A program made the translations under genes and the position numbers. Below are positions 723-58,696 of a stretch of DNA of 64,000 bases, one piece after another; positions within the stretch are counted from its first letter, which is position 1, and every line of letters begins with the position of its first letter. The DNA is from Minisyncoccota bacterium (GTDB lineage: Bacteria; Patescibacteriota; Minisyncoccia; Phycocordibacterales; UBA9973): assembly GCA_036517375.1 (NCBI GenBank), contig DATDWM010000018.1, positions 9,004-73,003 on the forward strand, read 5' to 3'. The notes under the pieces are model-generated. The model saw only the letters and a program-made list of their open reading frames with translations, was not told where the DNA came from and made no database searches.

Positions 723-2726
723 CTACAACAAATCCTCGGGATCTACAAATACGTCAAAGTTAGGTGGCAGAGACATTATTTTAGATAAAAGTTCTTGATC
801 AAGGCTGGAATTAAGAGAAAGTTCAGGCAGAGACCATTTTTGTGGATCGAGCTTGATTAGGGTATTGGTGACGTATTTACCCTTCCGTTTTACGTGGAAG
901 CCGCTGAAAATCTCAGGAGAGTATCCCTTGAAAATCTCCCTAAGTAGTTCCTTGGCTCTGTCTGTTTGTAACTTGTCGCCTAGGTGTACTATTTTTATAA
1001 AACGTTTCCATGGCGGATAGTCCATCTTCTTTCTATCAGCTAATTCCTCCCGTACAAAGGAGAGTAAGTTGCCACTTTTTATGGCTAGTATCGCCGGATC
1101 GTCCACATTTTTTGTTTGAATAATGAACATAGAGGCTGTCTGGTGAATTATTGAAATCACAAGCTCGGTCATCTTCTCGCTTATTCTAAAGTTCGGTATG
1201 CTCCAGAATGAGTCAAATGAAGCTACGATAGAAAGATGCACCTTTTCTTTCAAATAAAATAGAGCCATCTCAGTGCCGATAAGTATTGACCCGGGAGTAC
1301 TCTCGAACTCCTCTACTATTTTCTCCGCTTCCTTGGCGGAATGCACAGAGTCCCTGTCTAATTTAAATATCTTTGTTTTCTTTCCCCCGCCTGTTGGACG
1401 GGCAGGCTTTTGAAATATTTCCTTCACTTTCTCGTGCACGGTGTCCGTGCCGATGCCTAAAGGCATCAAGTTCCAGCTTTTGCAATTTACGCAGGCCGTA
1501 TCCGGAGCTATTTCGCGGTGGCATCTGTTGCAGGCAAACATTCTTTTCTTGCCATCTCGGGAGAGGTACAGGACTACCGGCGCGCCGCACTTTTCACACA
1601 GAACTGTATTGTTGCAGTCCTTGCACACTGTCATAGTGGCAAGGCCCTTCCTTAAAGAAAAGATAAAAACATTTCGGTCTTTGTCTACCGCTCTCTCTAT
1701 ATTTTTAATACTTTCATCAGTTAGAATTTTAAATTCTTTTCTTTCGATGCGTGAAGTGGGCTCTTTACCTATTATTTTTATCTCCCCATCAAAGTCTATT
1801 CGGAAAGAAAGTGGGCTCACGTTTGTAACCCCGTCGAGTTCACTCCGGGCACTGGTTTCAAAGCGTAGCAAGGTATCACCTAAAATAAATTTCACATTCA
1901 TTTTAGCGGCAAATATTTCTACGAAGACTCGCAGGTCCAGGTGTGGTCGAGATATTGATTTGTAGCCGTTCGAGCTTTCATGTTCTAGGATAATAACTCC
2001 AATGTCCGGGCGGGGGATAGATAGAAAGGGGGCGGTACCTATAATGAGCACCGGATGCTCTGTTTCTATCACGCGCTCTATGCGCTCCAGAGTTTTTTTA
2101 TTCCCGAGACCGCTGTGAATGTAGAAAGTGAACTTTTCTATCCCCTTGGATAGGGATTCATGGAAGTTTTTTATATCATGTTCGGTGGGGAGCACGATGA
2201 AAACCGACTTTTTCTGCGCAAAGGAGCTACGGATTAGAGTTTTATAAAAAGAAACGCGCTCCGGAAGGGGAGCTTGGAAAAGTAATTTTTCTGTTCGAAT
2301 ATTTTTCCCGCCCACCGTGGATTCACCCTGGACACTACTATTATTTAATTCTTTATTCTTCCACTTTGATATTTTGTCATACTCTTCTCGCAAGACTGCC
2401 GGCAGTAGGTGGGTGACTACGTCATTTTTCCTAGCGGCAAAATACTTGGCCGTATCAAAGGCCGACTCTATGTATTCTTTTTTAAAGATGGAATGTTCCT
2501 TAACCTCGATTATTTTCTTCAGGTTGAAATTCATCTCTTTAACTTCGGATTTCGCGCCGCTTAATTCTTCCGAGGATACTACTAAGCCTAGAGTTTTACT
2601 GTTACGTAAGGACACGTTCACGATACTACCATCTGGTATTTCCAGACTGCTGAAATAGGTTAAATCGCTTTTCCAGACACCTTTCTTTAAGGGAATTACT
2701 GTCACTATTTTCATACCAGTGCTCAT
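723..2726 (-). CDS. priA: Primosomal protein N' (PriA helicase)
   Basis: 667 aa. Helicase motifs (VLIIGTAPF..., ILEHESS) and the Cys-rich zinc-binding insert CKDCNNTVLCEKCGAPV...CNRCH typical of PriA. The stop lies 9 nt upstream of the lysA-like start, so the two are probably an operon. Confidence 0.85.
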   Translation of the reverse strand: MSTGMKIVTVIPLKKGVWKSDLTYFSSLEIPDGSIVNVSLRNSKTLGLVVSSEELSGAKSEVKEMNFNLKKIIEVKEHSIFKKEYIESAFDTAKYFAARKNDVVTHLLPAVLREEYDKISKWKNKELNNSSVQGESTVGGKNIRTEKLLFQAPLPERVSFYKTLIRSSFAQKKSVFIVLPTEHDIKNFHESLSKGIEKFTFYIHSGLGNKKTLERIERVIETEHPVLIIGTAPFLSIPRPDIGVIILEHESSNGYKSISRPHLDLRVFVEIFAAKMNVKFILGDTLLRFETSARSELDGVTNVSPLSFRIDFDGEIKIIGKEPTSRIERKEFKILTDESIKNIERAVDKDRNVFIFSLRKGLATMTVCKDCNNTVLCEKCGAPVVLYLSRDGKKRMFACNRCHREIAPDTACVNCKSWNLMPLGIGTDTVHEKVKEIFQKPARPTGGGKKTKIFKLDRDSVHSAKEAEKIVEEFESTPGSILIGTEMALFYLKEKVHLSIVASFDSFWSIPNFRISEKMTELVISIIHQTASMFIIQTKNVDDPAILAIKSGNLLSFVREELADRKKMDYPPWKRFIKIVHLGDKLQTDRAKELLREIFKGYSPEIFSGFHVKRKGKYVTNTLIKLDPQKWSLPELSLNSSLDQELLSKIMSLPPNFDVFVDPEDLL

Positions 2727-2743
2727 CCTAGGATTCTAACACA

Positions 2744-2809
2744 AATGTAATATACCCCCACACCTATTACTTACCTTGATTAAAAATAGGTGTGGGGGTA
2801 TATTACATT
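2744..2809. repeat. Perfect 25-bp inverted repeat (arms 2744-2768 and 2785-2809, 16-nt spacer) in the divergent priA/mreB intergenic region
   Basis: Left arm aatgtaatatacccccacacctatt. Right arm aataggtgtgggggtatattacatt is its exact reverse complement. Confidence 0.9.
2776..2804 (+). promoter_or_regulatory. Putative sigma70-type promoter for mreB: -35 TTGATT (2776-2781), 17-nt spacer, -10 TATATT (2799-2804). The predicted TSS is at or next to the mreB ATG, so the transcript may be leaderless.
   Basis: Hexamers and spacing read directly from the sequence. The -10 lies inside the right arm of the 25-bp palindrome. Confidence 0.4.
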
Positions 2810-2810
2810 A

Positions 2811-3824
2811 ATGGGAATTTTTTCCAAAAAATTAGGCATAGATTTGGGCACGGCCAATACTTTAGTGTTTCTACCCGGCAAAGGAATCGTGCTAAATGAG
2901 CCTTCAGTTGTGGCCGTTTCGGAACAAGATAATAAAATTTTAGCTATCGGGTTTGAAGCTAAAGACATGATTGGTAAAACTCCAGAAGCGATAATTACCT
3001 ACCTGCCGATGAAAGACGGAGTTATTGCGGACTACCGTGTGACGGAGGCAATGCTTAAATATTTTATCAACAAAGCCATGGGGCGGTTTAATCTTTTTAA
3101 GCCGGATGTGATGGTGTCCGTACCTGCGGGCGTTACTTCAACCGAAAGACGTGCGGTGGTAGAAGCCGCGGTACGAGCAGGAGCGAAGAATGCGTATGTA
3201 GTTAAGGAGCCGATCCTAGCGGCGATAGGCGCAGGGATACCCATACATGAGTCCAAGGGCTACATGGTGGTAGATATCGGAGGAGGCACGACGGATGTCG
3301 CGGTGATCTCGCTCGGCGGAATTGTGGCTTCCACTTCCGTGAAATGCGCGGGTAATAAAATTGATCAAGCTATTGCGGATTATATTAAAAGAACTTTCAA
3401 CTTAGCTATCGGAGACCGGACAGCGGAAGAAGTAAAAATAAAAATAGGCGCTGCGGTACCGCTTGAAGAAGAACTTAGGGTTACCATTAAGGGCCGGGAC
3501 TTTATTCAGGGGCTTCCTCGTTCCGCGCAGGTCGGAACCAATGAAATAGTTAAGGCGATAGATGGGGAATTGAAACACATCATCAAGGCGATCCGGGATG
3601 TCTTACAGGAAACTCCGCCCGAGCTTGCTTCCGACATTATGGACTTCGGCATCATTATGACTGGGGGATCATCCCAGTTGCGGAATTTAACAGATTTGGT
3701 TTATCGGAAGACTGGGGTTAAGGCAATACTCGCTCCGGACCCACTTTTCTGTGTCGTTAAGGGTACGGGTATAGCCCTCGAGCACTTGGATGTTTACAAG
3801 AAGACTGTTTTAAGTAAAAGATAA
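2811..3824 (+). CDS. mreB: Rod shape-determining protein MreB (actin-like ATPase)
   Basis: MGIFSKKLGIDLGTANTLVF... is a classic MreB N-terminus, with phosphate-1/2 and adenosine motifs (DIGGGTTD). I prefer ATG 2811 over the ORF-track GTG at 2790. Confidence 0.9.
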   Translation: MGIFSKKLGIDLGTANTLVFLPGKGIVLNEPSVVAVSEQDNKILAIGFEAKDMIGKTPEAIITYLPMKDGVIADYRVTEAMLKYFINKAMGRFNLFKPDVMVSVPAGVTSTERRAVVEAAVRAGAKNAYVVKEPILAAIGAGIPIHESKGYMVVDIGGGTTDVAVISLGGIVASTSVKCAGNKIDQAIADYIKRTFNLAIGDRTAEEVKIKIGAAVPLEEELRVTIKGRDFIQGLPRSAQVGTNEIVKAIDGELKHIIKAIRDVLQETPPELASDIMDFGIIMTGGSSQLRNLTDLVYRKTGVKAILAPDPLFCVVKGTGIALEHLDVYKKTVLSKR

Positions 3825-3827
3825 AAT

Positions 3828-4529
3828 ATGAGCTTGAAAGAGCATCTAAATAAAAAAAATCTTCACCATGCGTATTTGATTGAAGGGGTGCGGGAAGAAA
3901 TGGTTCCTGAAATTTTATCCTTACTTCCTGAGTTAGGTGTAGAGGTCATGGGTAATTCTGACTTTGCTCATGTTACCCTCGATACATTTAAGGTGGAAGA
4001 TGCTAGGAATTTAAAATCATACGCTCTCGAGCGCGCAAATTCTGGTGGTAAAAAGGTATTTATCGTTGCAACCAATAACTTTTTACTCGAAGCGCAGAAT
4101 ACCTTACTTAAAATGTTTGAAGAACCGATAGAGAATACGCATTTTTTCCTAATAGTGCCAGATGCAAGCGCGCTACTTAAAACTTTTATTTCAAGATTTT
4201 ATTTCATCTCCGCTAGGCAAGACCTAGCGGTAGAATTAAAAGAGGCCGAGAAGTTTATAGCCATGAACCCGAGCGCGCGGATTAATTTTATTAAAGAATT
4301 ACTTGCGGAAAATGAAGATGACGATGAAGCGCTTGCTCTCGACTCCAGTCGCGCAAAGGCACTAAGGTTCCTAAACGAACTAGAAAGTGCTCTCCATAAG
4401 AACCCTGTGTCAAGGATGCCCCTTGACACGTACCAGCAAATTTTCCAAGTTCGTAAATTCTTACGCATGCCGGGGAGTTCTACGAAAAGCCTGATGGAAT
4501 CTGTCGCATTGGTTATCCCTGTGATATAA
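3828..4529 (+). CDS. holB: DNA polymerase III delta' subunit-like clamp-loader protein (AAA+)
   Basis: N-terminal HHAYLIEG and NTLLKMFEEP (sensor/Arg-finger region) resemble the HolB/DnaX family. The AAA+ fold is short (233 aa). Confidence 0.65.
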   Translation: MSLKEHLNKKNLHHAYLIEGVREEMVPEILSLLPELGVEVMGNSDFAHVTLDTFKVEDARNLKSYALERANSGGKKVFIVATNNFLLEAQNTLLKMFEEPIENTHFFLIVPDASALLKTFISRFYFISARQDLAVELKEAEKFIAMNPSARINFIKELLAENEDDDEALALDSSRAKALRFLNELESALHKNPVSRMPLDTYQQIFQVRKFLRMPGSSTKSLMESVALVIPVI

Positions 4530-4536
4530 TGAGCGT

Positions 4537-5088
4537 ATGCAATACAACTTTTCCAATTTTAAAACTGAATTAAAGAGGGTAGAAGATTTTTTAGGTAGTA
4601 CTTACAGCCAGCTCAACATCGGCCGGGCATCACCTATGGTGCTAGATGGTGTTTCCGTAGAGTCCTACGGTTCCTATGTGCCGCTTAAGAACGTGGCTTC
4701 AGTGTCTATCGAAGACCCGAAAACTCTCCGCATTGCGCCTTGGGACAAAAGTCAGATCAAGGATATTGAACGCGCGATAGTGGGGTCGAATTTAGGATTA
4801 TCTGTGGCAACTGATGATGGAGGCATAAGAGTAATATTTCCTCAGCTGACTACCGAAACCAGGCAGACACTGGTCAAAGTTTTAAAAGAGAAGCTTGAAG
4901 AAGCCAGGATTACTGTGCGCCGCGAGCGGGAAGTTGTTTCAAGTGACATAGAGGCCAAGGAAAAAGAAGCCAAGCTTACCGAAGACGATAAATTCCGAGC
5001 CAAGGAAGAATTGCAGAAAATTATTAATGAAGTAAACGCTAACCTAGAAGGAATTTTTGAAAAGAAAGAGCGTGAAGTAATGGGGTAG
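4537..5088 (+). CDS. frr: Ribosome recycling factor
   Basis: 183 aa. RIAPWDKSQIKDIERAI...SNLGLS and a C-terminal charged helix are typical of RRF. Confidence 0.9.
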   Translation: MQYNFSNFKTELKRVEDFLGSTYSQLNIGRASPMVLDGVSVESYGSYVPLKNVASVSIEDPKTLRIAPWDKSQIKDIERAIVGSNLGLSVATDDGGIRVIFPQLTTETRQTLVKVLKEKLEEARITVRREREVVSSDIEAKEKEAKLTEDDKFRAKEELQKIINEVNANLEGIFEKKEREVMG

Positions 5089-5097
5089 AATAAAAAA

Positions 5098-6222
5098 ATG
5101 AGCGTAATAATATTCATCATAATCTTATTAGTGCTGGTTGTCGTCCATGAGTTTGGGCACTTTTTTGCCGCGAAGAGATTCGGCATTCGAGTGGATGAAT
5201 TCGGATTTGGTTTTCCGCCAAAGTTATTCGGCTGGAAGTACAAGGAGACGGAGTACACCTTTAACCTCTTTCCAGTGGGTGGCTTTGTAAAAATATTTGG
5301 TGAGACACCTAATGCAGAAAATATAAGTGGTCCGGACAGCGCGCGGAGCTTCGTCAATAAAGCTAAATGGAAGCAAGCCATAGTGCTCTTTGCTGGAGTC
5401 TTTATGAATTTTATTCTCGCCTGGATATTGTTTTCCTTCGGACTAATGTCCGGACTGCCAACGTCCGTCGGTAGTGCTCTGCCTGGGTATGAGCTCGAAG
5501 ATGTAAATTTGATTGTAGTGTCGGTGAATCCAGAATCTCCAGCCGCATTAGCAGGACTCAAGCCCGGGGATGCTATTGTCTCGGTGGCAAGCTTGCCAGT
5601 AAAAGCCGGAGAGGAGAGTGAAAACTTGCAAGAAATTAATCCTGATACTTTGAAATCCTTCGTCGTCTCTCGCCCTAATAAAGAAATCGAAATAGGCTAC
5701 ACTCGCGGTAAAAATGACGAAGATATAAAATTTGTAAGCCTGATACCAACCCCAAGTGTTGTCGACGGTAGGCCAGCCATAGGCATATCCATGGATCAAA
5801 TAGGTACGACCAAATTGCCCTTTTTCGTGGCCTTAAAGGAGGGAATGAGAGTAACTCTATATATCACCAAAGACACTGCTGTGGGGCTTTATACGCTTAT
5901 TGTAGAAGGTTTAAAGGGTCAAGGTAGCTTGGCTGGTGTTACTGGGCCAGTAGGAATGGTGGGTATTGTAGGGGACGCGTATGACTTCGGCTTTGCCTAC
6001 TTGCTGTCCTTCGCGGCACTGATTTCGATAAACTTGGCAATAATAAATTTACTTCCATTCCCGGCGCTCGACGGTGGCAGACTACTCTTTCTTTTAATTG
6101 AAAAAATTAAAGGTTCAGTCATGAGTCCGAAGATTGCAAACACTGCTAACCTTGTTGGCTTTGTGATTCTAATTCTTCTTATGGTCCTAGTTACCTATCA
6201 TGACATCACTAGGTTGTTCTAA
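5098..6222 (+). CDS. rseP: RIP metalloprotease RseP (site-2 protease, M50 family) with PDZ domain
   Basis: HEFGHFFAAKRFG (HExxH) in TM1 and NLLPFPALDGG (LDG motif) near the C-terminus. Internal PDZ-like region. Confidence 0.85.
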   Translation: MSVIIFIIILLVLVVVHEFGHFFAAKRFGIRVDEFGFGFPPKLFGWKYKETEYTFNLFPVGGFVKIFGETPNAENISGPDSARSFVNKAKWKQAIVLFAGVFMNFILAWILFSFGLMSGLPTSVGSALPGYELEDVNLIVVSVNPESPAALAGLKPGDAIVSVASLPVKAGEESENLQEINPDTLKSFVVSRPNKEIEIGYTRGKNDEDIKFVSLIPTPSVVDGRPAIGISMDQIGTTKLPFFVALKEGMRVTLYITKDTAVGLYTLIVEGLKGQGSLAGVTGPVGMVGIVGDAYDFGFAYLLSFAALISINLAIINLLPFPALDGGRLLFLLIEKIKGSVMSPKIANTANLVGFVILILLMVLVTYHDITRLF

Positions 6223-11779: not shown

Positions 11780-12814
11780 ATGACTAAAATTCTTATTACT
11801 GGTGGTTGTGGTTTTATTGGCTCAAATGCGGTTAAGTACTATCTTCAAAAAAATTATAGTGTTCTCGTGCTAGATAATTTAAGCAGGTCTGGTTCTGAGC
11901 AAAATTTAAAATGGTTGCGAACACTTAAGGGTAAATTTTCTTTCAAGAAAATAGATATAACTAGCTACGTTTCTCTAGTAAGGATTTTTAAAGAATTTAA
12001 GCCTGATTTAATTTTACATTTAGCCGGACAAACTACTGTAGTTGGTTCCATATTAGATCCGAGAGAAGATTTTGAGGTTAATGCGCTTGGGACTTTCAAT
12101 TTACTAGAGACAATGAGGAACATAACACCAAAAGCTGCTTTGATTTACTCAAGTACTAATAAGGTAATGGGCAATTTGGAATATGTGCCTATTATAGAAA
12201 AACAGGAACGTTATATATATAAAAATATTAAAAATATTTCAGAAAAATATCAATTAAATTTCCATAGCCCGTATGGTTGTTCAAAGGGGTGTGGTGATCA
12301 GTACGTAACTGATTATGCTAAAGTTTTTAATTTAAATACAGTTGTGTTTAGACAATCTTGTATATATGGTCCTAATCAATTTGGTATGGAAGAACAAGGT
12401 TGGTTGGCGTGGTTTATTATTTCTTCGCTTTTTAATAAAGAAATTACAATCTTTGGTAATGGTAAGCAGGTGAGAGATGTTTTGTATGTGGACGATTTAA
12501 TTGATGCTTATGATCTAGCTTTTGTGAATATAAATAAGACAAAAGGGAAAATTTATAATATAGGTGGAGGGATTGAATTTAACTTATCTCTTTTAGAGTC
12601 TTTAAAAATTATTGGAAATATAGTCGGTAAAAACTTAAAATATAACTTAAGTTCATGGAGAACTGCTGACCAGAAGGTTTATATTTCTGATGTTGCTTTA
12701 GCAAAAAAAGATTTTGGTTGGTATCCAAAAGTTTCTCCTAAAGACGGTCTCAAAAAACTTTACAAATGGGTAGAAGAAAATAAAACTATTTTTAATAAAA
12801 TTTATACCAGATAA
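11780..12814 (+). CDS. NAD-dependent nucleotide-sugar epimerase/dehydratase (extended SDR, CDP-paratose-2-epimerase / UDP-Glc-4-epimerase-like)
   Basis: N-terminal Rossmann ILITGGCGFIGSN, SSTNKVMG, catalytic Y...K (YGCSKGCGDQY). 344 aa. Very AT-rich codon usage. Confidence 0.8.
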   Translation: MTKILITGGCGFIGSNAVKYYLQKNYSVLVLDNLSRSGSEQNLKWLRTLKGKFSFKKIDITSYVSLVRIFKEFKPDLILHLAGQTTVVGSILDPREDFEVNALGTFNLLETMRNITPKAALIYSSTNKVMGNLEYVPIIEKQERYIYKNIKNISEKYQLNFHSPYGCSKGCGDQYVTDYAKVFNLNTVVFRQSCIYGPNQFGMEEQGWLAWFIISSLFNKEITIFGNGKQVRDVLYVDDLIDAYDLAFVNINKTKGKIYNIGGGIEFNLSLLESLKIIGNIVGKNLKYNLSSWRTADQKVYISDVALAKKDFGWYPKVSPKDGLKKLYKWVEENKTIFNKIYTR

Positions 12815-12815
12815 T

Positions 12816-14027
12816 ATGATTTCTAATAAAAAAATGAAGATTTGTATATATGCCCATAGTTTTCCTCCTATCATTGGCGGTGCTCAAACTTATCAATATA
12901 ATCTAGCCGTTGGGTTAGGAAAGTTGGGGCACGAAGTCCTGGTCTTAACCGGTGATATTCCTGATTCTTTAAAACCGAAAATTAAAGACTATAAGTCATC
13001 ATATTTTAAAATAGTAAGAATACCGCTTTTTCGAGAATCAATAAAAATGAAAGCACCATTTAGAGATTTACTAATGGAATCATTCACATTCTTAAAAAAA
13101 TTTAATCCAGACATTATCTATTCCAATGGTTATGTTCCTTGTCTTTTAATTTCTTTAATTAAAGATGGTTTGAGGGCAAAGCACGTTTATAGTTATCACT
13201 CTACTCCAGAATTGGATGTAAATAAACTAGTAGGTATATGGCCAGGGAACTTAGATTTCGAACTTTCAGTGGCAAGATTTATTTTTAATAAAGGATCATT
13301 TGATGCTTATTTAGCTTGCAGTGACAATTATCTTAGCACTGTAAAGAAGAATATTAATTCCCAAATTAAGAATGCTCACCGGATTTATTACGGTGTAGAT
13401 ATATCCAAGTTTTCTTATAAAATTAAAGCTGACAGAGAGAAGTATGGATTTAGTGAAAATGATTTCGTTATTCTCTGCCCTGTGAGATTAATAGAAAGAA
13501 AGGGGATTTTAGATATCTTGCGAGCCATCAGTCAATTAAAGAAAATAATTCCTGGTGTAAAACTTTTAATTCCCACAAGCAAGCTTTCTACTAATGATAA
13601 GTTTAGCAAATTAGTACTCAACCTAATAAAATCTTTAAAAATCGAAAATAACGTAACAATAAGGGTTGATCAGTTTACCATTGATGATATGCCGATGGCA
13701 TACTCACTTTCAGACCTTGTGATATTGCCTTCATATTCAGAAGGGCTAGGTATCGTTTTATTAGAGGCCATGGCGATGAAAAAGCCAGTCGTAGCTACAG
13801 ATATTTCTGGCGTAAATGAAGTAGTTAAACACAATAAAACGGGCTTATTGGTTCCAGTTAAGAGTCCTAAAAAAATTGCTGAAGCAATTAAATTAATCTT
13901 TAGTGATAGCAAGTTAAGAAATAATTTAATCGATGGTGCTTATGCTATGATAGAGAAAGATTTTGAATTGAATAAACAAGTAAAGAAGGTTGAGGGGCTT
14001 TTCAAAAAAGTACATGGAAAAAATTAA
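12816..14027 (+). CDS. GT4-family glycosyltransferase (GT-B fold)
   Basis: C-terminal E-X7-E motif region EGLGIVLLEAMAMKKPVVATDISGVNEVV..TGLLV. N-terminal FPPIIGGAQ. 403 aa. Confidence 0.85.
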   Translation: MISNKKMKICIYAHSFPPIIGGAQTYQYNLAVGLGKLGHEVLVLTGDIPDSLKPKIKDYKSSYFKIVRIPLFRESIKMKAPFRDLLMESFTFLKKFNPDIIYSNGYVPCLLISLIKDGLRAKHVYSYHSTPELDVNKLVGIWPGNLDFELSVARFIFNKGSFDAYLACSDNYLSTVKKNINSQIKNAHRIYYGVDISKFSYKIKADREKYGFSENDFVILCPVRLIERKGILDILRAISQLKKIIPGVKLLIPTSKLSTNDKFSKLVLNLIKSLKIENNVTIRVDQFTIDDMPMAYSLSDLVILPSYSEGLGIVLLEAMAMKKPVVATDISGVNEVVKHNKTGLLVPVKSPKKIAEAIKLIFSDSKLRNNLIDGAYAMIEKDFELNKQVKKVEGLFKKVHGKN

Positions 14028-14634
14028 CTATAAACTAGCTAATAAGATCAAAAAACATATAAAAAATAGCGATCGTCCGCTCATTATTGTGATTTCTGGT
14101 GTTAATGGGGCTGGGAAAACTACTTTGGCTTTTCACTTATCAAATATATTAGATATAAGACAGCGTGTTAGTTTGGGGTCGATAGTAAAAACTTTGATTG
14201 TGATGAATCCTAAAAATAAAGTTATCTCTAAGATGAATAATTATTTCTTTCCTCTTAATAAGGTAGATATACACAAGCAGGCATTAATCATAAGTAAGGC
14301 AACTAACTCAATGATTAAGAAGTATTACATTGGGGGAGTTTCCTGTATTATAGAAGGGGTACAGCTTCTGACTCGTTATCTTGATAAGAACTGTATTCAA
14401 TTCCACATAAAGATAACTAATAAAAAAAAATATAATAAACAACTAAGAAACAGCGACACAAGAAATCCTCGTAATCTTTCTGAGAAAGTATTCGGAAATC
14501 TGTTGGCGGTGAATGATATTTTAAATAATGAGATGGATATGCCAAATGTGAATTGTTTAGAAAACTCCCGGTCCTTAAATGAAAATATAAATATCGTATT
14601 GAAAACTTTAATTATCAATCTTAATATTAAATAA
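14014..14634 (+). CDS. P-loop NTPase, putative small-molecule or nucleotide kinase
   Basis: Walker A IVISGVNGAGKTTLA near the N-terminus. ATG at 14014 is preferred over the ORF-track TTG at 13990. The start overlaps the GT4 stop by 14 nt. The C-terminal half has no recognisable motif. Confidence 0.55.
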   Translation: MEKINYKLANKIKKHIKNSDRPLIIVISGVNGAGKTTLAFHLSNILDIRQRVSLGSIVKTLIVMNPKNKVISKMNNYFFPLNKVDIHKQALIISKATNSMIKKYYIGGVSCIIEGVQLLTRYLDKNCIQFHIKITNKKKYNKQLRNSDTRNPRNLSEKVFGNLLAVNDILNNEMDMPNVNCLENSRSLNENINIVLKTLIINLNIK

Positions 14635-14638
14635 ATTT

Positions 14639-15622
14639 ATGCCCATCGATTTTACTGAAATTAAACAATTATCAAAGGAAGCAAAAGAAATTTCTAATGC
14701 TCTAAGAAAAGAACTTGGAGAGATGCCTCACAAAATTGAGGGAAACTTTATTGCTTTCTTTGGCCGTCAGTACAATCCTGATCATAAATGGAACTGTGCT
14801 CTGAAGCCCTTATGGTCTGGTTTCTATATTAAGTATAACGAATTAGAAATGATGGTTGATCCTGGAATCAATATTCTGGAGCGAGCAGAAAAGATTGGTG
14901 TAAATTTGGCTCGTACTAACACATTATTTATTTCCCACTCACATATCGACCACAAAAACGACTCTAATGTAATTGCTGAGATGGTCTCTTATAGAGAGAA
15001 CCCTGAATTAAATGTGCTATTTTCGAAACACTCTTTAAATGATAACGCAATGAGTCACTACCACTCTTCATCTAGGGAGAATAAGATAATTTTGCTTGAT
15101 GAGAATGAAGAGGTAGAATTATATAACGGTGTTAAACTTAAGCCCGTAGAAGTTGTACATTCAATTAATGGTGCATATGGTTTTGTATTAGACTTGAATG
15201 GAGTAAAAATTGGATACACAGGGGACACAGGCTTTAATACAACTTATAAAAGTGCTGACGGTAGAGAACTATCTGTTTCAGAAAAAGTACTCGACAAAAA
15301 AGATATAGAAGAACCTGGAGCTTTCAATGAGGACCTGAAAACTTTTTTTAGTGAAGTTGATTTATTAGTTTTCAACTTGCATGACGTGGAATTTAGAAAA
15401 CACACTAAACATAATTTATACCACTCTACAGTTTCTGATGCGGTGAAAGTTTTAAGAGATTCAAAAGTAAAACATTGTTTCTTTGAACATTTTAACCCAT
15501 ACGGTGGAGGGTTGGGTTTAGAATATCCTCAAAAAGTAAACCAATATATACGAGAATCTACTGGCAAGGAAACTACCCTTACCCCATTAAACGGAAGTGT
15601 TTATAGCTTAAATAATATTTAA
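14639..15622 (+). CDS. Metallo-beta-lactamase-fold hydrolase
   Basis: HxHxDH motif (FISHSHIDHKND) and downstream GYTGDTG/H residues. 327 aa. Confidence 0.7.
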   Translation: MPIDFTEIKQLSKEAKEISNALRKELGEMPHKIEGNFIAFFGRQYNPDHKWNCALKPLWSGFYIKYNELEMMVDPGINILERAEKIGVNLARTNTLFISHSHIDHKNDSNVIAEMVSYRENPELNVLFSKHSLNDNAMSHYHSSSRENKIILLDENEEVELYNGVKLKPVEVVHSINGAYGFVLDLNGVKIGYTGDTGFNTTYKSADGRELSVSEKVLDKKDIEEPGAFNEDLKTFFSEVDLLVFNLHDVEFRKHTKHNLYHSTVSDAVKVLRDSKVKHCFFEHFNPYGGGLGLEYPQKVNQYIRESTGKETTLTPLNGSVYSLNNI

Positions 15623-15624
15623 TT

Positions 15625-16677
15625 ATGCCAAGTGAAGCACCAAAATTTTTCGTAGATAAAGTTAGAGAGCAAAAGGAGGAAGATCCTAAACCGTATGATG
15701 CTGTTATTTCATTAGAACCTGGTAAAGAAAAAGTGGGCTTCGTTAGAGATAATTTCGTTTGTGAGGTTGTGGACGAAAAGGGAAATGAGTCTACAATTAG
15801 AATTCCAACCTCTATTACATATTCTAGAAAAGATGCGAATGAACCATGGAGTAAGAAGTTGTATGGCTACAGAGAGGGCGTAGGAGAGGCTTTAGATTCA
15901 GAAGAAATGAGTTACTACGTAGTCTACGATCCATCATCTGAATTAAGCTTCCTAGCTATGCCGCTTGAGGATAATACTAGAATTGCACGTAATAAGGACA
16001 ATTTAGACTTGTTTTTAAAAAACGGTCGAGAAGAAGACACTGAATCATTAAAAAAATTGATGGGCGAATTTAAAGACGTGGATTTCGGATTATTCGGTTC
16101 ACGTAGTGTTCTAGGCTCACCAGCAGCAAAAACAGTAGACATAGATTTGATTATTTATGGGCCTGAAGATTTACAAAGAGTAGTTTCTGCGATAGAAGGA
16201 AATAGTGATTTGCGCAAAAAAATAGGTCTAACAGATAGGTCTTCTGAAACAATAGAAAAATATGTAGCTCACTACATGCGAAAATTTAACATTACAGAAA
16301 GTGAGGCCAGGATTATAACCTTAAGAAGAAGGAGGTATATATTAAAACCTAACATTAAGTTATCGTTCAACTGCGCCCTGCCTGATAAAGAGAGAAAAAC
16401 TCCTATTGTTATAGGTTCTAAGAAAATTCATGATATTACAATTGAAGCCACAGCTTTGGATACCTCAATGTCTTCAGCTTTGCCTAGATTATTTTCAGTC
16501 GAAACTGAAGGGGAAAAAATAGATGTTGTGACTGGTAATTGGTCATTAAAAGATTTCATTAGACCAGGAGATAAAGTTAAAGTTATAGGCGCGTTAAGAG
16601 AGTCTAATGGTGTTACTTTTATCTCTTTAGAGAAACCAGGAGATATCATTCTCCCAACTAATAATGATAAGAAATAA
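15625..16677 (+). CDS. Pol-beta-superfamily nucleotidyltransferase with an uncharacterised N-terminal domain of about 140 aa
   Basis: Minimal NTase signature GLFGSRSVLGSPAAKTVDIDLIIYG (GS...DxD) around residue 150-175. I recognise no motif in the flanking domains. 350 aa. Confidence 0.55.
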   Translation: MPSEAPKFFVDKVREQKEEDPKPYDAVISLEPGKEKVGFVRDNFVCEVVDEKGNESTIRIPTSITYSRKDANEPWSKKLYGYREGVGEALDSEEMSYYVVYDPSSELSFLAMPLEDNTRIARNKDNLDLFLKNGREEDTESLKKLMGEFKDVDFGLFGSRSVLGSPAAKTVDIDLIIYGPEDLQRVVSAIEGNSDLRKKIGLTDRSSETIEKYVAHYMRKFNITESEARIITLRRRRYILKPNIKLSFNCALPDKERKTPIVIGSKKIHDITIEATALDTSMSSALPRLFSVETEGEKIDVVTGNWSLKDFIRPGDKVKVIGALRESNGVTFISLEKPGDIILPTNNDKK

Positions 16678-17578
16678 TGACAATACAGAGAAGATCTTAG
16701 TCAATAGTAAATTCGTTAAGAATTTAAATGTTACTGGCGATAAACTTCACTGTGAGGCTGGCCTGTATGTTTCACTTGGCCGTAAGTACGTGATCAAAAA
16801 AATAGGAAGACAATATAAATTAAATTCCACAGAACTTATACTCCTTGAAAAATCTGTATCGAGATACTACGATCATTTAAAAAAAATCATACCTAATAAT
16901 GTTCCTAAAATTTTTCTTACTAAGATAGATAAGGAGAAAAATTGCATTTTATTAGTTACGGAATATTTACCTTTAGGTAAAGTTACAGCTATTAAAGATA
17001 TTTCAATGAAAATTAAATATTTTAATGAAATTATTAAGTTAATACTCAAGATTTCAAACAAGAAAGGCAATACCTCTGGAAATAAACTCAAATGTTCTAT
17101 TGATCCCAATCCAGATAATTTCTTTTTGGATTCAGAAAATAAGATAGTATATAACGATTTCACACCACCGTTGTACAGAGAAAATGGTAAGTGGGTAGAA
17201 TTTAGAAGAAGAGACGAGGCTCATGCAAAAAAATCTGAAAAGGAAACTCGTTATTTTTCCGAAATAAATTTATTGCTGGCATTTATTAATAAAACAAGAT
17301 TGTATCTAACTTTAGATGAATACCTTAAGTTTTCCAGGTCACACTTTTCAACTAATAATAAGGTAAAGCAGTTTGTAAAAATCTTTGATGAAGTTAGATC
17401 TGAGAGGGTAGCAAGTTTCGATAAACTTGAGAAGCATGTCGTGCGAAGAGATTTATTAAGATTTGCCTTGTCCTTTCGCAAGGGTTTAACAAGTACTCAG
17501 GTCGGAGAACTTTACAAGAAATCTAAAAAACCTAACGGTGTTGTATTTCTTGAGAAAAAATATATAAGTTTAATTTAA
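16664..17578 (+). CDS. Hypothetical protein, possibly protein-kinase-like fold (APH / Kdo-kinase-like)
   Basis: CSIDPNPDNFFLD...KIVYNDFTPP resembles the kinase catalytic loop (D-x4-N) plus a DF-type metal-binding motif. The assignment is weak. The start overlaps the previous gene by 14 nt. Confidence 0.4.
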   Translation: MIRNNDNTEKILVNSKFVKNLNVTGDKLHCEAGLYVSLGRKYVIKKIGRQYKLNSTELILLEKSVSRYYDHLKKIIPNNVPKIFLTKIDKEKNCILLVTEYLPLGKVTAIKDISMKIKYFNEIIKLILKISNKKGNTSGNKLKCSIDPNPDNFFLDSENKIVYNDFTPPLYRENGKWVEFRRRDEAHAKKSEKETRYFSEINLLLAFINKTRLYLTLDEYLKFSRSHFSTNNKVKQFVKIFDEVRSERVASFDKLEKHVVRRDLLRFALSFRKGLTSTQVGELYKKSKKPNGVVFLEKKYISLI

Positions 17579-17582
17579 TATT

Positions 17583-18221
17583 ATGAATGAAGTAAATAAA
17601 GATGGTTTTTGTACAATTTACATAGCTAGACATGGAAAAACTGAGTGGAATTTGGAAAAAATAAACCAAGGTCAGTCGGAGTCAAATATTTCTGAGCTCG
17701 GACTTAAGCAAGCACAAGAAGCAAGTCACAAATTAAAAGATGTGAATTTTAGTGCTATATATTCTTCAGATTTATCTATGGCGCATAGAACAGCTGAGAT
17801 TATTAAGGGTAATCGAGATATAGATATTCAAAAATCTAAATCATTAAGAGGTCGTTCATATGGAACTTTTGAGGGTAAAAAGATTGAGGTATATAAGAAC
17901 TTTTTTAAGGATAAGTTAGCTGAAAGAGAAATTTTACCTGAAAAAGAATATATTTCATTTAGACTAGCCCCCGACATTGAAACTGATGAAGATATTACAA
18001 TTAGGTTTATGGGCAAGCTGATGGAAATATCCATTAATCATCCAAATGAGAGTGTGCTTGTGGTTACTCACGGCGGAGATATAAAAAACTTTCTAGTAAA
18101 GGTAGGTTACATCGAAAGGAAATCCTTTAAAGAGGGATCCTTTATTCATGGAGGGTATATGAAAGTAATTTCAGATGGTAATAATTTCTCAGTAGAATTA
18201 ATAGACGGAATAGAAGAATAA
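17583..18221 (+). CDS. Histidine phosphatase superfamily protein (phosphoglycerate-mutase-like)
   Basis: N-terminal IYIARHGKTEWN (RHG catalytic His motif) and downstream conserved His (VVTHGG). 212 aa. Confidence 0.75.
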   Translation: MNEVNKDGFCTIYIARHGKTEWNLEKINQGQSESNISELGLKQAQEASHKLKDVNFSAIYSSDLSMAHRTAEIIKGNRDIDIQKSKSLRGRSYGTFEGKKIEVYKNFFKDKLAEREILPEKEYISFRLAPDIETDEDITIRFMGKLMEISINHPNESVLVVTHGGDIKNFLVKVGYIERKSFKEGSFIHGGYMKVISDGNNFSVELIDGIEE

Positions 18222-18227
18222 TTTTTT

Positions 18228-18998
18228 CTATTTCTTTCTTATTTCAAAAATAACATACATAGGAATTTTTGAATATATTTTGTAGAATTCAGGTTTTACT
18301 TTGAGAACAGATTTCAATGGTTTTGGTTCAATAAAATCTGAAACTATAAACCCGCTTTTTAATATGTCACTTATCATTGCAGAAATAGGTCGATGATAAT
18401 AAGTCACTTTAAAATCATCAGACAGAACATCACTTACTTTTCTTGTAGCTAAGTAATCCCCAAAAATCTTACCTTCTTTAGATCCATTATTTTGATACCC
18501 CATTAGAAAAGATTTTTTACCTACTGCTTTATTTATTTCCGCCCCCCACTTAACTGGGTGGTGTGTTGAAAAAAGAAATGTTCCATTTTTCTTTAGTATT
18601 CTTGAAACTTTAGTAAGTATTTTTGTCCAATCTTTTGAATAGTGTAATGCTAAGCTGGAGTAGATGAAATCAAAAGAATTATCAGGGAAATTTAACTTTT
18701 CCATATCCATAGTATGAAATTCTAAATTAGGGATAGTTTTCTTTAAAAAATTAATACGTTCATTTGATATGTCTATACCAACAACTCTTTTTGCCCCAAG
18801 AGACTTTATATGCTGACATTCTTCACCTGTACCACAACCTATACATAATACCGTTTTTCCTTTTAAGTTTGGAATTTTTTTATACATAGCTGGTTTCTCT
18901 AGATATGTATGCTTTATGTTTTTTCCGCTCCGCATTTTTTCAGCACATTTTATGGTGTATTTATTATAGGATTCGATTGTGGTTTTGTCTGTGGGCAT
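18228..18998 (-). CDS. Class I SAM-dependent methyltransferase
   Basis: Motif I VLCIGCGTGEE and motif post-I VVGIDIS. 256 aa. The only minus-strand gene in the AT-rich island. Confidence 0.75.
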   Translation of the reverse strand: MPTDKTTIESYNKYTIKCAEKMRSGKNIKHTYLEKPAMYKKIPNLKGKTVLCIGCGTGEECQHIKSLGAKRVVGIDISNERINFLKKTIPNLEFHTMDMEKLNFPDNSFDFIYSSLALHYSKDWTKILTKVSRILKKNGTFLFSTHHPVKWGAEINKAVGKKSFLMGYQNNGSKEGKIFGDYLATRKVSDVLSDDFKVTYYHRPISAMISDILKSGFIVSDFIEPKPLKSVLKVKPEFYKIYSKIPMYVIFEIRKK

Positions 18999-19303
18999 GT
19001 TTAAAATTCATTATTATTATAGATTCTGGTAAATTTGAGTTTTATGTATAATTATATGCTTTATTGTATACAAGTTATCTGTACAATACAAATTATACTC
19101 ATACAGCTTATTATAAGTACCCTTTAAAGGGGTACGGGGGTCGTTTTCCGGGGTCCGGATACCCCCTGATGATACTTATGATGTTTTAGTAAAACATGCT
19201 ATATTTTGAAGGGCATTAAGACTTGTTTTAATCAAAGAGTGGTCTTTTATTAATTCTGAAATCCACTCTGAAAGCCCGCACATAATGTAAGAGAATTCCC
19301 AAA

Positions 19304-19924
19304 ATGCCTAACTTTAAATACAAAGCAATAATTTTTGATTATGACGATACTTTAGTCGAAAGCAGAAAGCAAAAGTGGGACCAGCATAAACACGTTGCCA
19401 AGAAATTTTACAACATAGATATTACTGATGGTGACCTAGGAGAGCATTGGGGTAAGCCGCTACATCTACTTGTGGAAGGTTTATATAAACTTTCAGACAC
19501 GGTAGAAAATATCTATACCAACTTAGCATTAACTCGAGACGATTTCAGAAAAGTTGTGTATGAAGGATCGGTCGATTTAGTGAAAAGACTCCTAAAAGAT
19601 AACATAAAAATCGGGGTAGTGTCAGCAACTGCTCGTCGCTTTTTAATTGATGACTTGAAAGATCATGGATTTCCCCTAGAAGATTTTATAATAGTTCAGG
19701 GTGCGGATGATACCCTAGTACACAAGCCGGACCCAGCTGTCTTCACGCCTGTTTTAGAAAAGCTAAGTAAGGAAGGAATTAAAAAAGAAGAAATAACTTA
19801 TGTGGGGGACTCTATCACCGACCTGGAAGCTGCGCATAAGGCAGGAATTAGTTTCGTTGCTATAACCACTGGCCTCTATTCGGAAGAAGATTTTAAAAAA
19901 TTGGGCGCAAAGACTATAATATAA
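19304..19924 (+). CDS. HAD-superfamily hydrolase (phosphatase-like)
   Basis: Motif I FDYDDTLV (DxDxT), motif III K, motif IV VGDSITDLEAAHKAG. 206 aa. Confidence 0.75.
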   Translation: MPNFKYKAIIFDYDDTLVESRKQKWDQHKHVAKKFYNIDITDGDLGEHWGKPLHLLVEGLYKLSDTVENIYTNLALTRDDFRKVVYEGSVDLVKRLLKDNIKIGVVSATARRFLIDDLKDHGFPLEDFIIVQGADDTLVHKPDPAVFTPVLEKLSKEGIKKEEITYVGDSITDLEAAHKAGISFVAITTGLYSEEDFKKLGAKTII

Positions 19925-19962
19925 AAATATAAGAGAATTATTCAAAGTATTAAATAAATAAT

Positions 19963-20556
19963 ATGCTAGACTTTTTCGACATCCCATACCTTCTTATTAC
20001 CTTTGGCTACACGGGCATCTTTGTAATCATTTTCCTAGAATCTGGGATATTTTTTCCTCTACCAGGGGATAGCCTGCTTTTTACTGGAGGGCTCTTTGCG
20101 GCCACTATCGGCCTAAATATATACTTTCTACTAGTCGTTGTTTTCGTGGCTACATTTTTAGGCGGATTGGCTGGATACCAGGTTGGCGTTTACTTATACA
20201 AGCTTCACGACTATTCATTTTTCAGAATATTCCTCAAGAAGGAACACATTGACCGCGCGCACATATTTTTTGAAAAGCATGGACAGTTTGCCATTATGTT
20301 CTGCCGGTTTATTCCCATTATTCGCACCTTTACACCCATCGTAGCGGGAGTGGCCAAGATGAACTATCGAGAATTCGTAAAGTATAATACTTACGGTTCA
20401 CTAATCTGGACTTTACTCATTACCTTGCTTGGATTTTTCTTGGGTCACGTTTTCCCGGAAATTCAAAACCACCTATCTTGGATTATTGTTCTAATTGTTT
20501 TAATATCTTTTCTACCATTTTTGTTGAAGCTACGTCCGAAGCGTCGAGCCAAGTGA
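19963..20556 (+). CDS. dedA: DedA-family (VTT domain) membrane protein
   Basis: ESGIFFPLPGDSLLFTGG and RFIPIIRTFTPIVAGVAKM are typical of the DedA/SNARE-associated family. Multiple TM helices. Confidence 0.8.
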   Translation: MLDFFDIPYLLITFGYTGIFVIIFLESGIFFPLPGDSLLFTGGLFAATIGLNIYFLLVVVFVATFLGGLAGYQVGVYLYKLHDYSFFRIFLKKEHIDRAHIFFEKHGQFAIMFCRFIPIIRTFTPIVAGVAKMNYREFVKYNTYGSLIWTLLITLLGFFLGHVFPEIQNHLSWIIVLIVLISFLPFLLKLRPKRRAK

Positions 20557-22765: not shown

Positions 22766-22857
22766 AACGAGTGCAATCCCCACATTTTACACAAAAAACA
22801 CTTTAAAATCAATTAAAATAAATTTTGTAAAATTATTTAATATGATAGAATAGACCC

Positions 22858-30747: not shown

Positions 30748-31782
30748 ATGAGGATGAAAAACTTTTGGAAAGAGTTAAAGAAACCTATTTTCGTATTGGC
30801 GCCAATGGCAGATGTTACCGACTATGCTTACCGGCAAGTTATTAGGAAGTATGGGAAACCCGATGTTTTCTGGACTGAGTTCGTCTCCGCGGATGGACTG
30901 GCGCACCCGGTGGCGCGTGAGAAGCTCTTAATTGATTTGAAATATTCTCAAAACGAGCATCCGATAGTCGCGCAGATCTTCGGCGGGAAACCAGAAAATA
31001 TTAAAGTAGCTTCGGCGCTATGCCTTGAGCTAGGCTTTGACGGTGTTGATATTAACATGGGCTGTCCAGATAAGTCAGTAGAGAAGCAGTGTGCTGGCGC
31101 AGCCATGATGCGGGATGTGGAACTTGCTAAGAAAATAATTAGAGCCGCTAAAGTAGGGGCAGAGTCCGCGGGTCAGGGGATACCTGTGTCGGTAAAGACT
31201 CGCATTGGATATAATAAAAATGAAATAGAAACTTGGATACCAGCACTCCTAGAAGAAGATTTAGCAGTGCTTACAGTGCATCTGCGAACTCGCAAAGAAA
31301 TGTCTAATGTTCCGGCTCACTGGGATGTGATGAAAAGAATCATTGAAATCCGAGATGAAATGAAAGTAGAAACTTTAATTTTAGGAAATGGGGATGCGGT
31401 AGACTTGAAAGATGCACAGCAAAAGGTGAAAGACTTTGGCTGTGATGGAGCCATGCTCGGCCGAGCAATATTTGGCAATCCGTGGTTGTTTGGTAAAATC
31501 CATACTGGTTTTTTGTCGCTACGTACGGCCGAGCCGAATTCCTCTCTCCAAAAAATAAGTAAGGATTTTATTGAAAACAAGTTAAAGGTGATGACAGAAC
31601 ATACGAAACTTTTTGAAGAAATGCTCGGCCAATATAAAAACTTTGCAATAATGAAAAAGCACTATAAAGCGTACGTAAACGGCTTTGAGGGGGCAAAAGA
31701 ATTACGAATGAAGCTCATGGAGGCAGAAAATGCAGATCAGGTTGGTAATATTGTTAATGATTTTTTATTAAATTTGGGGTAG
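30748..31782 (+). CDS. dus: tRNA-dihydrouridine synthase
   Basis: FVLAPMADVTDYAYRQV and an FMN-binding TIM barrel with catalytic Cys (NMGCPDKSV). 344 aa. Confidence 0.85.
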   Translation: MRMKNFWKELKKPIFVLAPMADVTDYAYRQVIRKYGKPDVFWTEFVSADGLAHPVAREKLLIDLKYSQNEHPIVAQIFGGKPENIKVASALCLELGFDGVDINMGCPDKSVEKQCAGAAMMRDVELAKKIIRAAKVGAESAGQGIPVSVKTRIGYNKNEIETWIPALLEEDLAVLTVHLRTRKEMSNVPAHWDVMKRIIEIRDEMKVETLILGNGDAVDLKDAQQKVKDFGCDGAMLGRAIFGNPWLFGKIHTGFLSLRTAEPNSSLQKISKDFIENKLKVMTEHTKLFEEMLGQYKNFAIMKKHYKAYVNGFEGAKELRMKLMEAENADQVGNIVNDFLLNLG

Positions 31783-31791
31783 AATGGTTCC

Positions 31792-38091: not shown

Positions 38092-39585
38092 ATGACGCCC
38101 AAAAAGGTTAAAAAATTAAGTCCGAAAATGTTAGGGCAAGGTCTTACTTTTGATGACGTTCTTCTCGTGCCTGGGTATAGTGAAGTATTACCAAAGGACG
38201 TCAGTACTAAGACTCGCCTTACAAAAAATATTACTCTCCACATTCCACTCATGTCTGCCGCCATGGATACAGTTACGGAAAGCGTTATGGCCATTGCCAT
38301 GGCTCAGCAAGGTGGCATCGGCATTATTCATAAAAATTTAGGAATAACTGACCAAGCCCGCGAAGTAGAACGCGTCAAGCGCTACGAATCCGGACGCATT
38401 GTAAATCCTATTACCTTACCTTTTAATGCAACAGTTGGGGATGCTCTTCGTGTTCAAAAAACTCATAACATCGGCGGGATTCCAATAGTGGATCAAGCAG
38501 GCGTACTTTTGGGCATTGTGACCAACAGAGATCTGCGCTTTGAAAGCTTAGATAAAAGTGAGAATATTCCGATTAAAGATATTATGACCACTAAACTCAT
38601 TACCGGTAGTCCAGACACTACTCTCCTAGAAGCAAATGATTTATTTAGGAAACACAGCATTGAGAAGCTCCCACTGATAGACAAAAACAAAAAGTTGGTT
38701 GGACTCATTACTTATCGAGACATGAGGAAAAGTAAAGCTTATCCAAATGCGACTAAAGATAAAGACGGTCGGCTCGCAGTCGGAGCAGCGGTGGGTACAG
38801 GCAAGGATGCGCTTCTGTGCGTACAAACTTTAGTGGAGGCTGGAGTGGATGTGGTATGTGTTGATACCGCGCACGGGCACTCTAGGGGTGTTCTAGAAGT
38901 TGTAAAAAATATAAGGAAAGAATTTCCTAAACTTGAAATAATTGCTGGTAATGTAGCGACAGGGGAAGCGGCTCTGGCACTTATCAAAGCAGGAGCAAAT
39001 GTAATTAAAGTTGGCATTGGTCCAGGTTCTATTTGTACGACCCGCATCGTCTCCGGTGTTGGGGTACCTCAACTCTCGGCAGTGGCGGATGTGTATAAAG
39101 TTTGTGGCCCGCTCGGAGTATCTGTTATCGCAGACGGTGGAGTGAAACACAGTGGAGACATTGTGAAGGCGCTTGTTTTCGGAGCAGATGTGGTGATGGC
39201 GGGTGGAGTATTTGCCGGTACTGATGAGTCACCAGGGGACACTATCGTCGTCAATGATCAAAAATATAAAAAGTACCGAGGCATGGGTTCCTTGGGCGCA
39301 ATGCAGAGAGGCTCGAAAGATAGATACTTCCAAGACGACCAATATGATCCAATCAAACTTGTACCCGAAGGCGTCTCCGGCCACGTGGCCTATAAGGGCG
39401 CAGTGGGAGAAGTAATACATCAATACATTGGCGGATTGCGAGCTGGCATGGGTTACTTAGGTGCTAAGGAAATAAATTCCCTGCGCGGTGCTTCTTTTTA
39501 TACAATTACTTCCGCAGGACTAAATGAAAGTCACGTACACGATATTTTTATGGTCGCCCCCACTCCTAATTATAAAAAACAATGA
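38092..39585 (+). CDS. guaB: IMP dehydrogenase with CBS pair
   Basis: [22 protein letters not shown] region, catalytic-loop [19 protein letters not shown]. 497 aa. Confidence 0.9.
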
Positions 39586-58618: not shown

Positions 58619-58680
58619 TTATGAAATCTGACGGGAATAACGGGATGAACGGCTCAACGGGCTGTTGAGCCGTTAAAATG

Positions 58681-58689
58681 TGCTATAAT
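58681..58689 (+). promoter_or_regulatory. Extended -10 promoter element TGcTATAAT ending 7 nt before the mraY ATG, so the transcript is probably leaderless
   Basis: TG at 58681-58682 and TATAAT at 58684-58689. mraY ATG is at 58697. Preceded by a perfect 11-bp hairpin at 58648-58674. Confidence 0.35.
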
Positions 58690-58696
58690 TACGGCC

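Follow-up and report, generated by a model that had tools for sequence, protein, structure and literature searches.

A perfect palindrome between priA and mreB

Why should a perfect inverted repeat of 25 bp fill the control region between the divergent genes priA and mreB? The locus lies in a stretch of 64,000 nucleotides (hereafter the window) of contig DATDWM010000018.1, from assembly GCA_036517375.1 of a Minisyncoccota bacterium. The host lineage corresponds to Candidatus Paceibacterota within the Patescibacteria, or Candidate Phyla Radiation (CPR). These bacteria cannot be grown alone and, to our knowledge, their promoters and their mobile DNA are almost uncharacterised. An earlier interpretation of the DNA letters, referred to below as the sequence-only reading, had taken the repeat for an operator and had considered a cruciform or an RNA hairpin as alternatives. 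The interpretation that we favour, with a probability of about 0.62, is that the repeat derives from a 44-bp palindrome resembling a transposable element of the miniature, inverted-repeat kind (MITE), which inserted into the -10 box of mreB and was co-opted as the upstream half of the mreB promoter.

The two arms (2744-2768, AATGTAATATACCCCCACACCTATT, and 2785-2809) are complementary at 25 of 25 positions and enclose a loop of 16 nt. This is the sole long inverted repeat with a span within 120 nt in the whole window, where no other match to an arm with up to three mismatches was found; none was found in 100 shuffles either. Folded as a hairpin, the region reaches -44.7 kcal/mol as RNA (z = -7.2 against shuffled controls) and -25.8 kcal/mol as DNA (z = -8.4). 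The palindrome, which the sequence-only reading had judged to be far beyond chance, is confirmed. The distances that this reading gave are also correct: TATATT occupies 2799-2804, the right arm stops 1 nt short of the ATG of mreB (2811), and the left arm is found at 18-42 nt from that of priA (2726). The repeat region is identical base for base in contigs of three independent assemblies (ENA, Logan and JGI), which shows that it is not an assembly artefact.

A dispersed family of short palindromes

Public metagenome contigs were scanned with a pattern made of the inner arms and a free loop, CCCACACCTATT-N(6-36)-AATAGGTGTGGG. The inner hairpin was found in 111 metagenome stretches, which represent about 80 non-redundant loci and derive for the most part from groundwater, including samples of the source's own series. 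The sequence-only reading had held that many identical copies across the genome would point to a dispersed repeat rather than to a local operator, and dispersed copies are what the scan returned. Bases outside the scan pattern are conserved as well. Two further C/G pairs lengthen the arms to 14 nt, most copies have TATA flanks, and the flank GGTATA, for which no selection was made, is conserved across the family. Over about 83 loci the loop measures 6-42 nt and the element 34-70 nt, and most stems reach 16-19 bp only. The outer sequence CCCCCACAC is conserved, the outer 9 nt being the most conserved part, whereas in the inner stem the two arms often change in step. Such matched changes fit a maintained structure and ends that coevolve with a transposase alike, and do not discriminate between the two. 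A bias towards T.G 'wobble' pairs, considered as evidence for an RNA, proved uninformative, since it follows from mutations accumulating in the C-rich distal arm.

The genes downstream of the copies fall into 34 unrelated clusters and hence do not form a regulon. Judged by their N-terminal sequences, their products include MreB, DnaE (with a divergent RnhB), Ddl, a Mur ligase, GatC, TsaE, the ribosomal proteins L25 and L27, a pilin, a PilM-like protein and a sigma factor. The genomic context was analysed for 68 copies: 21 have a gene end on one side and a gene start on the other, 13 adjoin a gene start only, 7 stand between divergent starts as in the window, and 6 between convergent ends, the rest being unclear. 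Several contigs hold two copies, and contigs with the element often have a second, diverged copy within a few kb. One pair (contig L016, 2760-2797 and 3278-3317) stands 518 nt apart before neighbouring genes and has similar loops, …CTTGAAATAA and …CTTGAAAAAT. It hints that the loop was inherited on copying, and is the sole such case in the data.

The arm sequence, or something close to it, was also met in other arrangements. In two contigs from other samples (L007, 1-226, and L078, about 1500-1803), the same 12+12 arms recur in a 64-nt tandem repeat in which they alternate with a second palindrome, GACAGTCTATAACACAACTGTTATAGACTGTC. These arrays were ruled out as CRISPR arrays: they are plain 64-nt tandem repeats without spacers. 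In L008 (140-230), the hairpin is accompanied by an extra tandem right arm. The contig has a higher GC content and its genes carry clear Shine-Dalgarno (SD) motifs, so the arm sequence is not confined to SD-free Paceibacterota. Among viral contigs the strict pattern gave 0 matches. A relaxed pattern gave three hairpins in IMG/VR contigs of 49-66% GC (L197, 1902-1940; L198, 5530-5580; L199, 212-249); their outer arms are CCCCCACACCT/AGGTGTGGGGG, they have no TATA flanks and their inner stems are different, and they are probably unrelated GC-rich hairpins. Within the window, positions 39557-39570, just upstream of a gene at 39582, hold a solo partial match to the left arm (CCCCCACTCCTAAT, two mismatches) with no partner arm, which is probably due to chance.

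Target duplications and the empty and filled mreB sites

The 4-nt flanks of the element are identical in 52 of 81 non-redundant loci. Where the tetramer is not self-complementary, twenty loci match in direct orientation only (TTTA, CAAG, TAAA and others), against three in inverted orientation only, and in the next tetramer outward direct matches fall to 0/81. Such a pattern marks a target-site duplication of 4 bp that prefers YWWR, mostly TATA.

The mreB locus provides both states of one such site. In most of 80 species the site is empty and reads as an uninterrupted ...TGnTATATT-N6/7-ATG. In six species (L120, L125, L135, L136, L138 and L162) and in the window it is filled at the same position: ...TATA is followed by CCCCC...GGGGG and then by TATATT.... 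Further filled mreB sites are present in metagenome contigs (L024, L026 and L112/L115). The comparison of empty and filled sites sets the boundaries of the inserted palindrome at 2755-2798. It consists of CCCCCACACCTATT, the 16-nt loop and AATAGGTGTGGGGG, 44 nt in all, and contains no open reading frame (ORF). The left copy of the duplicated TATA is found at 2751-2754. The right copy, at 2799-2802, makes up bases 1-4 of the -10 hexamer of mreB. An element arm spanning all 25 nt was considered and ruled out by the family flanks together with the empty sites: the ends are CCCCC/GGGGG, and TATA is the duplication. The left arm is made of a flank (2744-2750), TATA and a 14-nt element arm (2755-2768), and the right arm of a 14-nt element arm (2785-2798), TATA and a flank (2803-2809). 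The loop, ACTTACCTTGATTAAA (2769-2784, plus strand), has a 3' part, CCTTGATTAAA, that is common to other mreB-associated copies; these have the 3' core CCTTGAT(T/A)WAA in common and differ by 0-30 nt in the 5' portion of their loops.

The left flank, AATGTAA, pairs with TTACATT on the right and lengthens the stem from 18 to 25 bp. This feature is lineage-specific, and no other dispersed copy has so long an outward extension. At 56 empty mreB sites the equivalent 7+7 flank positions are complementary at 0-5 of 7, mostly at 1-2. Two substitutions from common flank types (AATGTGA and TTACTTT) suffice to produce the 7-bp extension, which may have arisen by chance, by selection for a longer stem or by hairpin-templated correction.

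Only 7 of the 81 species sampled carry the repeat at mreB. On a deep, weakly resolved neighbour-joining tree of PriA, filled species are interspersed with empty ones; L162, which is filled, has the empty L151 as its nearest neighbour. A single vertical insertion at mreB is at odds with this scatter, within the resolution of the tree. The patchy distribution may reflect repeated insertion, transfer by recombination or repeated precise loss, an event that a palindrome between direct repeats would promote.

Predicted leaderless promoters at mreB and priA

The predicted -10 hexamer of mreB, TATATT (2799-2804, plus strand), stands 6 nt before the ATG at 2811, which would place the transcription start at, or adjoining, the A of the ATG. 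A -35-like hexamer, TTGATT (2776-2781, plus strand), is found in the loop, 17 nt upstream of TATATT. On the minus strand, a putative extended -10 of priA, TGTTAGAAT (2733-2741), with the hexamer TAGAAT, precedes the ATG at 2726 by 6 nt (CCTAGG). It lies outside the repeat, and the symmetric model, in which the left arm would hold the -10 region of priA, is accordingly abandoned.

This layout recurs across species. Among 77 usable mreB loci, each from a different GTDB species, TAnnnT stands 6-8 nt before the ATG in 69 and is TATATT in 58. In the same 77 species, hexamer and ATG are 6 nt apart in 47 and the TG of an extended -10 is present in 57. The divergent upstream gene, usually priA, shows the mirrored layout CAT-N6-AnnnTA-n-CA in 58/77 species, with a distance of 6 nt in 43, and the two divergent -10 boxes are typically 12-13 nt apart. 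A similar arrangement is common in the window, where 21 of 53 crudely called genes have TAnnnT 5-8 nt before the ATG (14/21 at exactly 6 nt), often with the TG of an extended -10; examples are found at 4520-4536, 5081-5097, 22841-22857, 31775-31791 and 58680-58696. An SD-like motif precedes only 1/53 of these genes, and none is present at mreB. Read from the window alone, the pattern suggests genome-wide leaderless expression. The scarcity of SD motifs fits the absence of the anti-SD motif reported in a subgroup of Parcubacteria (PMC9297842). In the literature searched, no description of leaderless promoters in Patescibacteria was found. We thus infer, as the sequence-only reading had done, that the mreB mRNA is leaderless, a prediction well supported by the geometry of the locus and by the comparison with other species and with the genes of the window.

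The family as a whole points to the same architecture. In 28 of 83 loci, a TAnnnT starts with the duplicated tetramer and the ATG of a long ORF follows 5-8 nt on (6 nt in 23/28). A TTG at a spacing of 16-18 nt faces the gene in 16/28 of these loci, and is found in the opposite orientation in 3/28. This bias, together with the spacing of TTGATT in the loop, suggests that the element gives the -35 and the spacer while the duplicated target gives the start of the -10. The terminal G run of the arm puts a G at -14, and G runs (GGGGTAGAAT) also precede the -10 before the window genes at 5098 and 31792.

Other palindromes were observed at the same promoter. In eight species (L123, L127, L130, L135, L148, L152, L155 and L169) another palindromic insert, 70-130 nt long and unrelated to the first, sits exactly on the start codon of mreB, at about 2880-3005 where mreB starts at 3001, and at about 860-949 in L135. 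The site reads ATGGG|TCCCGTTAGAA ... TTCTAACGGG|ATGGG, with ATGGG duplicated, and the closing stem of the insert shows paired changes (TTAGAA/TTCTAA versus TACGAA/TTCGTA). The insert has no Rfam match. It would give an otherwise leaderless mRNA a structured leader and a short upstream ORF. In L154 (about 2900-3000) the same -10 region of mreB holds a different palindrome, CCCGGTAGTGAAACTTGGCAA ... TTGCCAAGTTCTACTACCGGG, flanked on either side by TGATA. It would seem that palindromic elements of several kinds land repeatedly in the mreB promoter box.

Proposed origin of the mreB promoter

Before the insertion, priA and mreB would have been driven by back-to-back extended -10 promoters, with boxes about 12 nt apart and each -10 placed 6 nt before its ATG, implying leaderless mRNAs. 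An element with 14-nt terminal inverted repeats, presumably moved by a transposase, would have entered the TATA of TATATT and duplicated this tetramer. The visible repeat would measure 25 bp and not 14 because TATA is self-complementary and seven flank bases happen to pair. The two -10 boxes would have been pushed 60 nt apart, the priA promoter staying intact outside the repeat. The mreB promoter would have been rebuilt, with TTGATT from the loop as its -35, a 17-nt spacer formed mainly by the right arm, and a -10 composed of the duplicated TATA and the native TT. Given the known footprint of RNA polymerase, the wider spacing should also relieve the direct competition of two polymerases at overlapping divergent promoters.

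Several observations weigh against this account. The window holds one copy only, and about 540 kb from 80 species hold none beyond mreB. In the resulting 600 kb or so of sequence that was not selected for the motif (the window and 80 loci), the sole copies are the seven at mreB, indicating that the copy number per genome is low. Neither an autonomous element nor a transposase with matching ends was found in the sequences examined, which also gave no convincing solo arms at the spacing of an insertion sequence (IS). No transposase is encoded between paired hairpins, where the ORFs are, by sequence, ordinary housekeeping genes. From the YWWR target one might guess at a parent in an IS5-like family. 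The loop differs at each locus, and recent copy-and-paste is not evident, the two copies of L016 being the exception. The copies at mreB have a loop core in common and changes that are matched between their arms, which could reflect long-term selection on the palindrome, for its structure or for the binding of a protein, over and above its role as transposon ends. Finally the element, with its 44 bp, falls below the usual MITE range of 50-800 bp (PMC11602168), as do many copies of the family.

A wider proposal is speculative, and we regard it as possible rather than probable. The Patescibacteria may harbour a family of mobile palindromes of 35-70 bp that target the TATA of -10 boxes, reconstitute a whole leaderless promoter there and are kept by selection on the pairing of their arms. 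Each unit may work as a cassette, with a -35 from the loop, a G-rich spacer with a G at -14 from the arm, and a -10 from the duplicated target. Such units may be domesticated transposable promoters, possibly also terminators or insulators, that fall below the MITE classes caught by standard finders. The stem in the lineage of the window may then have been actively lengthened to 25 bp.

Alternative explanations

The sequence-only reading had proposed that the arms are the half-sites of a dimeric transcription factor co-regulating mreB and priA. A broader version would have a global factor, or the element's own transposase, bind the arms at many promoters. The perfection of the palindrome agrees with an operator, and so does the conservation of the arms across species at mreB, where changes affect both arms together. 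A protein bound to the right arm, which overlaps the mreB promoter spacer, would moreover obstruct RNA polymerase. A dimeric operator, however, would not tolerate arm spacings of 6-42 nt, and its presence would leave the 4-bp direct repeats on either side unexplained. The associated genes are functionally unrelated, few of the sampled species have the repeat at mreB, and the priA promoter lies outside it. Local co-control of mreB and priA is therefore not retained, and we consider an operator unlikely in either version.

The hairpin could instead be transcribed and act as a 5' leader structure, as a stabiliser of RNA or as a terminator of neighbouring genes. Its fold is very stable and its inner stem shows paired changes, although matched changes in the arms are equally expected of two transposon ends. 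In the 21 copies between a gene end and a gene start and the 6 between convergent ends, read-through RNA would contain the hairpin, which could matter in tandem-gene contexts elsewhere. In the window, priA and mreB are each oriented away from the hairpin and have their predicted starts beyond it, so that a hairpin in either transcript, as the sequence-only reading had envisaged, is improbable at this locus. The stem is not followed by a T-run, and 0 terminator-like sites were detected in 2400-3200. In Rfam the locus matches only generic hairpin models of miRNA precursors, far below threshold; a scan of the whole window gave three tRNAs only, and no known RNA family at the locus. Overall we give a functional RNA hairpin little credence.

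A cruciform has about the same low standing. Its extrusion under negative supercoiling, which it would then sense, would sequester the spacer and the -10 of mreB, and could tune this promoter or shield the two divergent promoters from one another. In its favour, a long and perfect stem with a G+C-rich base gives a stable DNA fold. This stem extends 7 bp beyond the element and its duplication, further than in any other dispersed copy, and these extra pairs could reflect selection for a longer stem or hairpin-templated correction. Extrusion is however disfavoured by a loop of 16 nt, the stems of most family members measure only 16-19 bp, and two substitutions from a common flank type are enough to explain the extension.

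An invertible switch, in which inversion of the segment between the arms would turn the directional -35 of the loop towards mreB or priA, with both arms ending in an identical TATA-containing sequence, was rejected as highly improbable: none of the 21 loci seen in two or more contigs (0/21) has the loop in both orientations, the -35 faces mreB in all mreB copies, and at 16 nt the segment is much too short to be inverted by known recombinases.

Flanking genes and wider implications

The repeat is framed by priA (723-2726, minus strand) and mreB (2811-3824, plus strand), a divergent pair. The identities that the sequence-only reading had assigned to them are confirmed by profiles: the mreB product matches MreB_Mbl with E = 1.7e-131, and the upstream product matches the PriA 3' DNA-binding domain. 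Close MreB homologues are nearly all 337 aa long, which is the length encoded from ATG 2811 and fixes the mreB start at this position. The nearest relatives of PriA are only about 62% identical, indicating that no close relative has been sampled. The priA gene has two in-frame ATGs 12 nt apart (2714-2726, minus strand). Gene callers choose ATG 2714, which gives 663 aa, while ATG 2726 gives 667 aa and adds an N-terminal extension of four residues (MSTG) that is absent from the relatives. The geometry of the predicted leaderless promoter, by the same logic as for mreB, favours ATG 2726 over the caller-chosen start, as does a database entry of 667 aa. Elsewhere in the window, a stretch of low GC content (12000-20000, 0.31-0.34 against about 0.40-0.45 elsewhere) contains genes that are all on the same strand.

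If our interpretation is true, extended -10 promoters in this lineage give rise to leaderless mRNAs of the operon-leading genes, and the essential genes mreB and priA share a minimal pair of back-to-back promoters. A palindrome of about 44 bp could then enter a -10 box without killing the gene, because it brings a replacement -35. The locus also calls for caution, in that perfect palindromes in promoters are not automatically operators.

Comparison with known systems

No paper describing the element was found in the literature searched, and a large survey of MITEs makes no mention of Patescibacteria. Like palindromic operators, the repeat has a two-fold symmetry that overlaps a core promoter. 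Operators have short half-sites, a fixed spacing and a coherent regulon, whereas the arms here measure 14-25 nt and stand 6-42 nt apart, before genes unrelated to one another. Repetitive extragenic palindromic sequences (REPs), bacterial interspersed mosaic elements (BIMEs) and REP doublets forming hairpins (REPINs) are likewise short, dispersed extragenic palindromes that can form stem-loops and often lie between genes. REPs are imperfect palindromes with a conserved 5' GTAG, moved without target duplication by REP-associated tyrosine transposases (RAYTs), which are IS200-like; they are abundant and mostly located 3' of genes. The element lacks these REP features and has 4-bp duplications.

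MITEs are defined by terminal inverted repeats of at least 10-15 bp, target duplications of 2-10 bp and a size of 50-800 bp (PMC11602168). Apart from its size, the element agrees with this definition: it is short and non-coding, with perfect 14-nt arms and a 4-bp duplication, and its mreB site is found empty and filled. MITE finders with a floor of 50 bp will miss elements of about 44 bp. Unlike the usual MITE, it targets the -10 box itself, in a leaderless and SD-free setting.

The Correia elements measure roughly 100-200 bp, with terminal inverted repeats of about 26 bp, a 2-bp TA duplication, an IHF site and more than 100 copies per genome. The present element differs in its length (34-70 bp, and 44 bp here), its 14-nt arms, its 4-bp YWWR duplication, its unrelated sequence, its low copy number and its occurrence in another phylum. 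Both are nevertheless short, non-coding and able to form hairpins, with terminal inverted repeats and a TA-containing target duplication. Both lie mostly just upstream of genes and supply them with parts of a sigma-70-type promoter. Correia elements, which are MITEs of Neisseria, carry sigma-70 promoters and contribute them to neighbouring genes (PMC10969869). In the element described here, unlike in Correia elements, the duplicated target itself becomes the -10 box, and the likeness between the two is functional only.

Promoter propagation and 'putative mobile promoters' have been described in prokaryotes (PMC3488235). In mobile and hybrid IS promoters, as here, mobile DNA brings a -35 or a partial promoter that is joined to resident sequence. 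Those promoters belong to full insertion sequences or longer blocks, whereas at mreB a palindrome of about 44 bp would replace only the upstream half of a leaderless promoter. The closest analogues of the element are thus the promoter-bearing MITEs, above all the Correia elements, together with the idea of the mobile promoter.

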